A stretch of DNA of 62,630 nt, counting the filler, from Hausera hauseri (lineage: Eukaryota), in NCBI GenBank assembly GCA_046269625.1. It is 11 parts of 11 records of this genome, joined end to end, with 100 filler letters (N's around TTAATTAATTAA, not from the genome) between each part and the next. Parts side by side here need not be neighbours in the genome. Positions count along the whole stretch, not along the records: positions 32,183 to 42,408 come from JBJURY010218854.1; positions 42,509 to 47,270 come from JBJURY010445469.1; 9 more parts are not named here. The stretch is one strand, 5' to 3'. The notes below the pieces were generated by a model, which was given only the letters and a program-made list of their open reading frames with translations, was not told where the DNA came from and ran no database searches. Each line of letters starts with the position of its first letter. Within the stretch, counting starts at the first letter, position 1. Positions 38,323 to 45,700 of this stretch are shown piece after piece. The translations under genes and the position numbers were made by a program.

Positions 38323-38430
38323 TGAGAGGTCGGTCACCCTGCGATTTTGGGCCCGCCGCGATGGGGCTGGAGTCCCGGCCGTCAGCCCTGCAGCGGTCGG
38401 TCAAACGGCGCCTTTCGCGTCAGCCCCGCA
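38323..38430 (+). repeat. 108-bp TG...CA 5' terminal repeat of G2, followed by anti-PPT ACACGCCCCCGGG
   Basis: TGAGAGG...GCCCCGCA, with no TGG-starting PBS after it. Aligns to the reverse complement of 45594-45700. Confidence 0.8.
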
Positions 38431-39745
38431 ACACGCCCCCGGGCACACTACTTTTCCCCTCTCTATTTTCGTTTTCCTAAATAATAAGCACATATACACA
38501 CTCATTACATTACATTTACATATTGCAACCCTTTGTGCTTTCATTTCTTTCTTACTCAGCTCTTTCGATTTTTATCTAACACATAACGGTCTATAGTACC
38601 ACTCACCGGAACCCTACCATCTTTCCCAACCCACATTTGTATCCATATACATTTCCGTACCCGTGGTGGCATTAACTCATCGCCAAATATAGTTACCACG
38701 GATAAAACCACCACGAAACCAAAACATGTTACATTGCTTCAAAAAACTCATTTCTACCCCTGCTAGCAACCTCTCACCTACTACCGCTTTGGCTCCTCTT
38801 TCTCATTGCGCCGATTTCTTTATTGACAACCAAGGCTCCAGCAAAACTTAGTTGCAATTTCATCAACTATGGCTGCAGGGAAATAACATTACTGACTCTC
38901 TAATTAAAACACAATCTTCTCTTTTTACTCCCTAATAACATCAAAACACGCATTCACAACAACATCGAAATCTTTCAACTTCCAGACGCATATTCCCAAC
39001 TTTTCAATGCAGTTCTTAAGATCACAGAATCTTCCATGGACACGATCATACAACGTTTCTTCCACGATAAAACTATAGGCACCCAACGACCATCAGAATT
39101 TTTACGCACCTTTTTGGCACATCTATATACCCTCGGCGTCACTAAAGAACACAACCCAGATCTACTGCGCCACTATTTCCGCAATGCGTTACCTATCCAA
39201 ATTCGGGCTCTACTTACCGTGGTGGAGGACTTCACACCGCTTGAGAAATTGGCCGAATTAGCCGATAGGACACACGACGTTCTACACGTAAATTCCCCAC
39301 CAGTTTTTTCGGCAGCAGTTGCCGCTAACGATATTCAAACCAATAATACATCAATAAAACAACAGCTTAATTAGCTACGTGCTGAAAATATTGCACTACA
39401 CGCAACAATCAACAATATTAATAATAAAGTAATAGAACTCACCCTGTCCCGCCGGAGGGATTTTGTCGCTGACCGCGTTCGTTCTGTGTCTATAAACCGC
39501 TCACCATCCTTTGTACGTTCGTCGATCTGCTATTACAACAGCAGATTTAACACTAATGCTCAGAAGTGCTGCCTAGGGTGCAAATTTTATAACAAAAGTT
39601 TTTCCTTGCACACCGTTGTTTGCATCTACCACGCAAGGTTCAAAAACCATGCTCCTAAATGTATTCCAGGCTGCACTTTCAAATCAGATACGAACGACGG
39701 ACGTACTACCTTTCCTTCTAATAGTCGCCCTGGTTCATCCTTTCA

Positions 39746-39755
39746 AAAAAACTAA
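39746..39755 (+). promoter_or_regulatory. -1 ribosomal frameshift slippery site A AAA AAC at the Gag stop
   Basis: AAAAAAC immediately before the Gag TAA (39753-55), with the protease region downstream. Confidence 0.65.
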
Positions 39756-42508: not shown

Positions 42509-45500
42509 TACCACCAAATTCCGGTGGCCCCAGCAGATATTCCGAAAACGGCTGTCATTACACCTTTCGGCCTTTTCGAGTACCTTTTCATGCCTTTAGT
42601 ACTCCGTAGCGCTTCCCAGACTTTCCGAAGGCATATTGATACAGTCGTATGAGGTTTAGACTTTGCTTATCCCTATGTCGATGATATCTTAATTGCATCA
42701 TCATCCTCAAAGCAACACTCCGAACACTTACGTCTAATCTTCCAACGCTTGCATTAAAACAACTTGAAAATTAATTTCTCCAAATGGTTCTTTTTCTACA
42801 TAAGGTGAACTTCCTAGGACATGTTATTAGCTCCTCCGGACACTCACCTCAGCCAGAGCGCATCACACAGCTCAAAAACATTCGGCTACCACGTACATCA
42901 ACAGAGATTCGTTCTTTTCTAGGAACCTTGCACTTTATTTATAAGTATGTTGCACGCTGCTCCACTCTAACCGCTCCATTTGCATCGCTAAGCTCTGGCA
43001 AGAAAAAAAAACAGCCTATTCAATGGACTGCCAAGCTAGTCAACGCTTTCGATCACCTTAAAGATAATCTAAAAACTGTGGAAATCCTGGCCTATCCCGA
43101 CTCCCATGCAGAACTCTTCTTAACCACGGATGCATCTACAACAGCTGCAGGTGTCGGCCCTCATCAAGTTTAAAAGGGATCCCATGAGCCATTAGAATTC
43201 GTCTCGAAAATTCACGGCACGAGAGCAAAGATATTCCACCTTTGACTGAGAGTTGCTTGCAATGGTTCTTGCCGTAAAACACTTTAAACATCTGCTAACT
43301 GCACAAAATTTTACAATGCAAACGGATCACAAGCCCTTGTTTCAAATTCTCACCATAAAGTCGCCTTATCCACGTCAGGAGAGGCAAATACCGTTTTTGT
43401 TCACATTTAATTTTGAAATTAAGCACCAAAAACGGAGTCGACAATTTAGCAGCTGACTTTTTGTCCCAATCGGTCAGCTCGATTGATTTTACGCCAATTT
43501 TCCATAAATCCAAACTTCAACAAAACCAGCCACCTCCTGACATCCTTAAATCTTTTAAATCGTGCAAAACCATCGATGGTGTCGCCTTTAACACTTTCAA
43601 ACCTAATAATACTAAGGTCATCCTTTCTGAATCGCTTCAAAAAGAAGCATTCATTCGTTGCATCATCTCGGTGCCAAAGCCACTTTCGACTCTTACAACG
43701 CCAAGTAGTGTGGCCGTCAATGCGCTCTGATGTGCAGGCATGGGTCAGGCAATGTGTGGCATGCTAAAAATACAAATTTAGTAAGCACTTAAAGCCACCA
43801 CTATATCATTTCCCTGCACGTCGCGTTTTGTGTCTGTTCACATTGGCCTTGTAGGCCCACTACCCTTAGACAACGGCCATCAGTTCATGCTCACAATGAT
43901 GGACTGTTCCTCGAGATGGCCAGAGGCTGTCCCGCTTCGGAGTACCAACACAAACAATCGCAGACGTTTTCATCTGCACTTGGATCAGCAGGTTTGGATC
44001 ACCTCATCACATCATTTCGTACCAAGGTCCACAGTTCGAGTCCAACCTGTTTAAAGCTCTTGTTAATCGATTGGGAATTAACCACATTAGTACGTCACCA
44101 TATCATCCTCAATCGAATGGCCTTCTTGAATGCTTTCACAGAACTATGAAAACGTCTCTCAAAATCCTTGCTGAGTCCAATTGCATTTGGACCACACTTC
44201 TTCCGTATGTTCTGCTTGGCTGGCGGAACACACCATCTACTTCTACAGGCTATTCACCTGCAGAAGCATTATTTGGCACTTCTCTCAGATCATTATTCGA
44301 GATGACTGAGCTGGAGAATATTCCTACAGACGAAACCATACAAGCGGCACAGAAACACTTCGTTGACGTCAGCAAAGACTCATTTTGTAGACTGTTACAC
44401 GGAAATAAACCATACATACCCGACGATTTATATACTGCCAAGTTCGTATGGCTAAAGAATCAGGCGCCGTGTGGTTTTCAACCTCAGTATGTTGGCCCTT
44501 ACAAAGTAATTTGTTTAAACTCTCACAACATCATAATTCTCAAGGACGACAAAGAAGTAACAGTAAACATCAACAACACTAAGCCAGCCTTCTTCATTGA
44601 CGACACGTCTCCCATCGAAACCACTTCTCCACCAACATCTTAACACGACGCGCAGCAATCCAACAATTCGCCATCTATCTCTGTTCAATTTCTTAATCCA
44701 CTTTTGCCTACGCTTTCTCCCAAGACTTCTATTTCAATCTCTTCTGACAATTCAGCCTACCCCCACCCGATTTTGCACCTTCAAGCCTTTTTACACCACT
44801 TTCATCCACTCATAACAACCTGCTTTCTCCTTTTACAGTACTTCTTCCATCAAACACCACTTCGACTTTACCAATCTCTTCATCTACTCCTTTCATGATT
44901 CCAACATCTTGCATAACATTTTCCAACTACTCTCCTTCGCCTTTTCCATCTTCTTGCTCTCTTCCGTTTTGTCCCTCTTCGCCGTTTTCTCTCTCTGTTT
45001 CTCCTACCACACCTTCCTCATTTTCGGTGCTTTCTTTCTCCATTTTCCTCACAAATCGTCTTCTACTCCTTTCATTTCCGCTTCGAAACTTTCTTCTTTC
45101 TTTACTTATATCCCTATCTATCTTTCTCTCTCTACCACTACCTCTATTTCATCTTCCACTTCCACTCTTTCAACCAATTCTATTCCAACTTCTACTCCAA
45201 CTTTTGTCTATCTTCCTTCATCCTCCACTACACCTTTTATCATTCCTTCGTCTTTAAACAGTCTCTTAAACACCTTTAACCATCCATCTCCCACAATCTC
45301 TATTCCTACTTCGCTTTCTTCTCCCTCTCTTCTTTCTGACTCATTTTCGCACGACACAACACTCACAACAAATCCGACAATTTTTTCCCCAACTTCAACC
45401 TTTGCAAGCAAACACACAGCATAAAGACAAAACACGCACAGTCACATTTACAAGTATAACAGGGAATAATCAGTAGAAGGTAACTAACATCTTGTTCACA

Positions 45501-45700
45501 CTAAGACCGACTGACACAGACAAGTTTTGTTTTGCGGTTTTTTCTCTCCGTCTCTTTTACCCTTTACAGTTTTCACTTTGCCACGGGGGGTGATGTGGTG
45601 CCCACAGCGGCCGGAGAACTTTGGCCCATTTGGTTGGACACGGCCGGGCGTCCCCTGCCGCCGCGTCGGGCCCATAGGCGGGCCCCAATCTCCCACCTCA
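42509..45700 (+). mobile_element. CsRn1-like gypsy copy H, 3' half (RT, RNase H, integrase, Ser/Thr/Pro tail, PPT, 3' terminal repeat)
   Basis: YVDD; TTDAS; YHPQSNGLLECFHRTMK; YVGPYKV; PPT CGGGGGGTGA at 45584-45593 followed by TG...CA. Confidence 0.93.
45594..45700 (+). repeat. 107-bp GC-rich 3' terminal repeat (TGTGGTG...CACCTCA)
   Basis: Directly follows the PPT and has a 6/7 terminal inverted repeat. GC content drops sharply after 45700. Confidence 0.85.

Follow-up and report, generated by a model that had tools for sequence, protein, structure and literature searches.

We analysed a 62,630-nucleotide stretch of the Hausera hauseri genome (assembly GCA_046269625.1; hereafter the window), in which 11 short contigs are joined by N spacers. 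It holds five decayed copies of one gypsy retrotransposon family: the 5′ parts of four copies (A, B, G1 and G2) and the 3′ part of a fifth (H). An earlier note on this DNA had read positions 38323-45700 as a gypsy retrotransposon with inverted terminal repeats, with the caveat that the ends come from different copies. That interval includes an assembly spacer (42409-42508), and the region encoding reverse transcriptase (RT), RNase H and integrase is present on both sides of it, with 65% nucleotide identity between the two. Because two contigs are joined across the spacer and pol is present twice, G2 and H are separate copies, the pol of G2 being truncated by the end of its contig and that of H by the start of its own. 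The features are collected in Table 1.

The order of genes in the family is gag followed by protease (PR), RT, RNase H and integrase (tblastn with the intact protein P0003; Pfam); the rve integrase domain is recognised in H and in P0003, and a polypurine tract (PPT) stands directly before the TG-starting head of the 3′ long terminal repeat (LTR), at 45585-45600. Over 491 residues the proteins of G2 and H share 63% identity. In a tree of RT-RNase H-integrase, G2, H and three intact proteins (P0003-P0005) form one clade with support 100, and this clade is sister, again with support 100, to loci with direct LTRs and primer sites for tryptophan transfer RNA (Trp tRNA); G1, which is too short, and the named CsRn1-clade reference elements were left out of the tree. 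The possibility that H belongs to an unrelated family, raised in the earlier note, is ruled out by its grouping with G2, and, judged by the tree, G2 and H are members of one gypsy family related to CsRn1. The CHCC Gag motif, given for the CsRn1 clade (PMC2582038), is found in all four copies that have gag, with two such motifs each in A and G2. Differences between the gag sequences of G1 and G2 fall at the third codon position 45 times and at the other two 13 and 9 times, a bias which shows that the layout lasted in separate active lineages under selection. Behind the integrase of H, the pyrimidine-rich stretch 44640-45510 (+) is a long Ser/Pro/Thr-rich C-terminal Pol tail and not an untranslated region; the tail is also kept in the intact relatives P0003 and P0004. 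No relative of the family was found in viral contigs, nor in prokaryote genomes, where the sole motif match (L081) is unrelated; a metagenome scan returned 80 loci with ~35-45% identity over long segments, none belonging to the family, and these were used as controls.

The GC-rich repeat of 107 bp behind a G-run PPT in H is present as the earlier note described it. Equally well founded is the homology among the three ~108-bp 5′ regions of A (1634-1527), G1 (33661-33768) and G2 (38323-38430), which are identical at 64-70 of 108 positions without gaps (z 8.5-11.5), and the ungapped inverted block of 26/35 between H and G2 was recovered together with its extension over the PPT. Compared pairwise, the PPT plus repeat of H gives z scores of 6.2 (G2), 3.8 (G1) and 2.0 (A, which taken alone is marginal) in the inverted orientation versus 1.4, 0.1 and 0.3 in the direct one. 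A profile of the three copies reaches z 5.3 inverted and 5.8 with the PPT included, scores attained in 0 of 300 dinucleotide shuffles each, with GC content kept; the direct values are 1.0 and 0.4. The matching inverted test on tRNA-primed relatives gave z −1.6 to 0.7 in all 12 testable loci (12 of 16 related loci, some belonging to one family; four were dropped as the primer-binding site (PBS) or LTR start could not be placed). At eight sites the letter of H is not the one found in most run X1 contigs: in the inverted register the commoner letter fits the leaders 12 times and the H letter once, and in the direct register, which is biased by alignment, the counts are 0 and 16; four of the eight sites carry nearly all the gain, so the support is modest. 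Predicted duplexes between leader and head likewise score better than shuffles for G2 and G1 (Table 1).

The likeness across the three copies stands above chance but is weaker than had been claimed: an nhmmer profile retrieves H at E=30 only, which counts against the match, and A is marginal. Partial dyad symmetry of the repeat, offered earlier as a caveat, is ruled out as the cause by comparison of H with itself (z 1.1) and by folding (z −1.4 to +1.3 in five of five strands). On these scores we regard the inverted complementarity between the 5′ region and the PPT plus 3′ repeat as real. Seven well-covered run X1 contigs leave H at 45575, just before the PPT; their letters could either fold with the PPT into a local hairpin or represent, read on the other strand, the leader of copies resembling H.

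The Trp primer site that stands beside the 5′ LTR in the CsRn1 clade, TGGTGA(G/C)CCCG, is absent in intact form from A, G1 and G2, and, in agreement with the earlier note, no PBS starting with TGG lies directly behind any of the three 5′ regions. A motif resembling the Trp PBS is found ~9 bases inside them (9/11 in A, 8/11 in G2 and 6/11 in G1), in no case starting with TGG; the match of copy A was reached in 197 of 20000 shuffles. Judged by their placement, the 5′ regions occupy the position held by primer site and leader in relatives, and the motif is likely a vestige of the old Trp site. The lack of an intact tRNA site in the leaders makes tRNA-independent priming a fair proposal. To that extent the self-priming suggested in the earlier note stands, on the complementarity and the missing tRNA site; the mechanism suggested with it, PPT-primed copying of the 5′ end, does not, since such copying would yield plus-sense DNA, which would be unable to copy the element body. 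The only match to the Trp site of at least 10/11 in the window, at 13751-13734 (−), belongs to other DNA; an N gap and the CBP piece follow it at a distance of ~130 bases, and it probably marks another CsRn1-type element.

The polarity of the H repeat is indicated by the DNA that adjoins it. Contigs of run X1 aligned to 45545-45745 number 3223 (their loose ends are described from 6 of 152 rows), and in 127 of them the letters directly before 45594 are AT-rich and mutually disagreeing (agreement 0.36). Because unrelated DNA adjoins this boundary in 127 contigs, the TGTGG start is an outer end at many loci, as in direct LTRs. TGTGGTG at 45594 also matches the published CsRN1 left integrase motif at 7/7 positions versus 4/7 for the supposed 5′ termini (PMC3601003, Table 3). 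Most likely, then, a direct LTR begins with the 107-bp repeat, and the inverted terminal repeats of the earlier note are made improbable by the foreign-flanked boundary, by the motif scores and by the sense coding DNA outside the supposed termini. No contig joint that changes strand at the H head was found among the run X1 contigs over this interval, and on that ground an arrangement in which the head adjoins its own identical inverted copy was rejected. At 45606, 13 bases into the head, nine run X1 contigs diverge from it; those 13 bases start with TGTGG and close with CCACA.

Depth over H in run X1 is ~10,000 ahead of the PPT, 19,000 across it and 29,000-78,000 within the head; these rising values weakly suggest the ratio of 1:2:3 expected from the model set out below, depth not being copy number. 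Positions 45709-45712 are covered by 10-15 contigs with letters unlike H at a summed depth near 1200, versus 18.6 for the contig identical to the H flank behind the head. The DNA behind the head thus seems common to other copies, and the contigs likely bridge the head into shared DNA behind 45700.

Outside the junctions lies decayed coding DNA. The best frame beside the junction runs in element sense for A, G1, G2 and H and, weakly, for B; before the junction there are 1 (A), 2 (G1), 2 (G2) and 5 (B, weak) stops per 200 codons, and the frame behind the head of H has 9 stops in 420 codons versus 26.5 expected (0 of 1000 shuffles). Upstream pieces were identified as BBS8 (A), CBP/p300 (B), KANK-like ankyrin (G2) and, weakly, Tudor (A), and the piece next to the junction of copy B yielded no identification. 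No intron interrupts the BBS8 piece over 277 codons, versus an intron of 41 bp in a host C2H2 zinc-finger gene of the window; that gene, which we take to be Spalt-like, lies at 16890-16300 (−) with its intron at 16795-16755. The decayed sense-strand coding DNA beyond the supposed termini is more readily read as part of the element than as insertion sites, and the DNA behind the head of H is likely captured host mRNA, as its reading frame suggests. A gypsy integrase end was considered for this DNA and rejected, no family or homolog having been found for it.

Table 1. Features of the gypsy copies and adjoining DNA in the window, in window coordinates.
Feature	Position	Strand	Basis
Spacer between two contigs	42409..42508	.	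Assembly
LTR head of copy H, 107 bp, 70% GC, start TGTGGTG	45594..45700	+	Sequence; CsRN1 5′ integrase motif matched at 7/7 (PMC3601003, Table 3); unrelated DNA in front in 127 contigs
PPT of copy H, G-run	45585..45593	+	Sequence; relatives have an equal G-run before TGT(A/G)G
Decayed pol, copy H: second half of RT, RNase H, integrase, long C-terminal tail	42509..45514	+	tblastn with P0003; Pfam rve
Decayed frame behind H head, likely captured host mRNA	45701..46962	+	Stop count versus shuffles
Copy G2, putative inverted copy of head and PPT, at primer-site position	38318..38446	+	z 6.2 versus reverse complement of 45578-45700; duplex −130 kcal/mol, z −4.7
Decayed gag (two CHCC-type motifs) and pol, copy G2	38670..42408 (start approximate)	+	Sequence comparison, Pfam
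KANK-like ankyrin gene piece, element sense, reaching the G2 junction	37511..38317	+	2 stops per 200 codons beside junction
Copy G1, putative inverted copy of head and PPT	33656..33784	+	z 3.8; duplex z −3.9
Decayed gag and pol, copy G1, broken off in RT	34063..36453	+	Sequence comparison
Decayed coding sequence in the sense of the element, its frame open as far as the G1 junction	32183..33655	+	Stop count
Copy A, putative inverted copy of head and PPT, best Trp primer-site vestige	1511..1639	−	z 2.0; homologous to G1 and G2; duplex z −0.8, not significant
Tudor-like coding piece entering the A junction	1636..2414	−	Pfam TUDOR E 0.036 (weak); 1 stop per 200 codons
BBS8 piece, intron-free, stop-ridden, upstream of copy A, element sense	3341..4192	−	277 residues colinear, E 1e-88
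Copy B, strongly decayed region at the corresponding place	10402..10509	−	By-eye alignment; z 1.3-1.5
CBP/p300 piece, uninterrupted, decayed, upstream of copy B, element sense	12289..13599	−	390 residues colinear, E 8e-40

We propose, at a probability of roughly 0.5, that these copies represent a family primed by its own end: its LTRs, likely direct, are likely built of the 107-bp head and, behind it, captured host mRNA, its leader starts with the inverted copy of PPT and head (~120 bases), and from the complementarity we infer that the head RNA of its own 3′ end serves as primer. The layout would be head, cargo, inverted copy of PPT and head, leader, gag, pol, PPT, head and cargo, in which the cargo is the U5. 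The transcript would fold as a panhandle, with the 3′ PPT and head paired to the inverted copy; the 3′ head would be terminated at the duplex end, or cut there by RNase H as in Tf1, whose primer is 11 bases long, and RT would copy the cargo from that point; the strong-stop DNA would then jump to the head and copy the element body. Plus-strand synthesis from the PPT would continue into the attached primer, restoring head and PPT at the primer-site position, and the rebuilt copy would drive the second strand transfer by the logic of tRNA-site restoration; in the retroviral scheme the tRNA site is rebuilt from the tRNA. Such read-through into the primer would account for the presence of the PPT in the match, for the joint evolution of leader and head, and for the agreement of the start of the leader with the end of the head. 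The free primer end or the strong-stop DNA may, moreover, switch to co-packaged host mRNAs, which would yield sense-strand, intron-free cargo joined at one fixed point on both sides.

Several observations weigh against this proposal. No copy in the window has both ends, and the identity of leader and head could be compared across copies only; the duplex of A with H is no better than shuffles, and copy B aligns with the leaders by eye at a low z (Table 1). The 1.5-6.6 kb upstream of the four 5′ regions yielded no LTR head, each of these stretches being cut short by a contig edge, a gap or a broken copy; the one comparison of 25 that beat all shuffles is located inside ankyrin coding DNA, and a candidate decayed head at 36454 was rejected. 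Nor was a consistent integrase end found before the leaders, only G2 and B having CA two bases ahead of the junction. No homologs were found of the frame behind H or of the frame before G1. Lastly, positions 45696-45702 fit the published right-end motif at 7/7 (PMC3601003), so that H could be an ordinary complete LTR of ~109 bp.

This last point leads to an alternative that we consider doubtful: the LTRs are direct, either ordinary ones of 109 bp or head plus cargo, the inverted leader is structural only, with a role in packaging, dimer formation or PPT masking, and a host tRNA or small RNA primes at a decayed site. Its grounds are the right-end fit of H, the 9/11 motif in A and the TGG with which G1 and B start, and hairpins at the PPT have been described in Sire elements and HIV (PMC3601003). 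However, the Trp-like motif has no TGG in any of A, G1 and G2, and each of them departs from it at the fifth base. A tRNA site is recopied every cycle and should be the best-kept part of the element. The 120 paired bases, ending at the cargo junction, also exceed what such stems usually need.

It is improbable that the LTR-PPT frame was flipped between subfamilies, with gag-pol of G1, G2 and A antisense to the LTRs, or that the likeness is partly chance between GC-rich sequences. The ends compared do come from different copies with 63% protein identity, the nhmmer value is poor, and A and B are weak; but shuffles that keep GC and dinucleotides never reached the observed score, the boundaries agree within a few bases, no G-type 3′ end in the window supports a flip, and the contigs that leave H at 45575 continue with letters that are pyrimidine-rich on the other strand and could, by eye, be an H-like leader. 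True inverted termini on an RT-RNase H-integrase element, with the foreign-flanked heads as by-products integrated alone, are very improbable: the inverted homology is real, three (perhaps four) 5′ regions start at one place with no head upstream, and the last seven bases of H are a 6/7 inverted match to the left-end motif, but recombination between inverted ends cannot produce the unrelated DNA seen at the inner boundary in 127 contigs, as that boundary would always face the PPT or the leader, sense coding DNA at five of five outer flanks would be expected 1 in 32 times if orientation were random (B being weak), and the DNA behind 45700 seems common to other copies.

A family primed by its own end would resemble several known systems in part. 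With the CsRn1 clade (CsRn1, PwRn1, AgCR1-14; PMC2582038) it shares the CHCC Gag motif, the order PR-RT-RNase H-integrase, the G-run PPT and the left end TGTGGYG; it differs in lacking an intact Trp site, in the leader complementary to PPT and head, in the two CHCC motifs and in the host pieces at the LTR position. By these characters the family is a relative of CsRn1 and not a member as far as the Trp primer site is concerned. Tf1 and Tj1, of the Ty3/gypsy group, likewise have a primer site complementary to their own LTR RNA and use no tRNA (PMC4600332), a complementarity seen here across copies only; they are primed by a short piece from the 5′ end of the mRNA and belong to a different clade, whereas the complement here extends over ~120 bases and takes in the PPT, so that the 3′ copy is the indicated pairing partner, unlike in Tf1. 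Skipper of Dictyostelium is a gypsy element in which a pyrimidine tract replaces the tRNA site, and a novel self-priming was suggested for it; the account of its priming in PMC5006619 reports that no complementary region was found in the left LTR, in contrast to the long complement of PPT and head described here.

DIRS-1 also has an internal complementary region, needed to rebuild its ends (PMC7192593), but DIRS elements have a tyrosine recombinase and inverted LTRs, whereas the present family combines a DDE integrase and a PPT with LTRs that are probably direct. Ginger DNA transposons have a gypsy-like integrase in common with it (PMC3601003), but they have terminal inverted repeats and no RT; neither inverted termini nor the evolutionary link to Ginger suggested in the earlier note finds support, and the family is neither Ginger nor DIRS. 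LTR-mediated retroposition also yields partial, intron-free and often chimeric copies of host mRNAs by template switching (Tan et al. 2016, PMC5131818); the retrocopies described there are internal, with switch points anywhere, whereas those considered here lie at the LTR position with one fixed joint. Our literature search, with Repbase and most subscription papers outside it, returned no gypsy element whose LTRs are inverted, nor one in which a long leader is complementary to PPT and LTR.

The window holds other elements as well. A distant gypsy element at 17234-21900 (+) runs from RT to integrase and has long extra open frames behind it (19600-20343 and 20292-21857), which may be env-like or captured. 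Decayed DNA polymerase B-like frames, which we take to be of the Polinton type, lie at 55577-62630 (+) and 5500-8400 (−), with two copies 69% alike on one contig; at 48890-53970 a repeat of several hundred bases, present in at least three partial copies on two contigs, stands beside Polinton-like genes on the minus strand. One contig (27422-32082) consists of degenerate TCT/TCC repeats with many gaps and a G skew of −0.89.

The broader reading, which we put forward tentatively, is of a lineage with an RNA primer from its 3′ end, a site rebuilt in each cycle and a U5 rewritten from host mRNAs, since the primer end would be free to land on any packaged RNA: a third priming mode of LTR elements, coupled to gene copying. 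Own-end priming predicts that each leader is identical to its own head and that strong-stop DNA is joined to element RNA. A layout of this kind would be missed by LTR-finding software. If the inverted leader is structural only, it would still represent unusually long end-to-end pairing in a gypsy RNA; if the priming reading is true, it would add a further route to those by tRNA and by a short 5′ piece as in Tf1, and would give one cause for the host-gene pieces at LTR positions in the Hausera hauseri genome.

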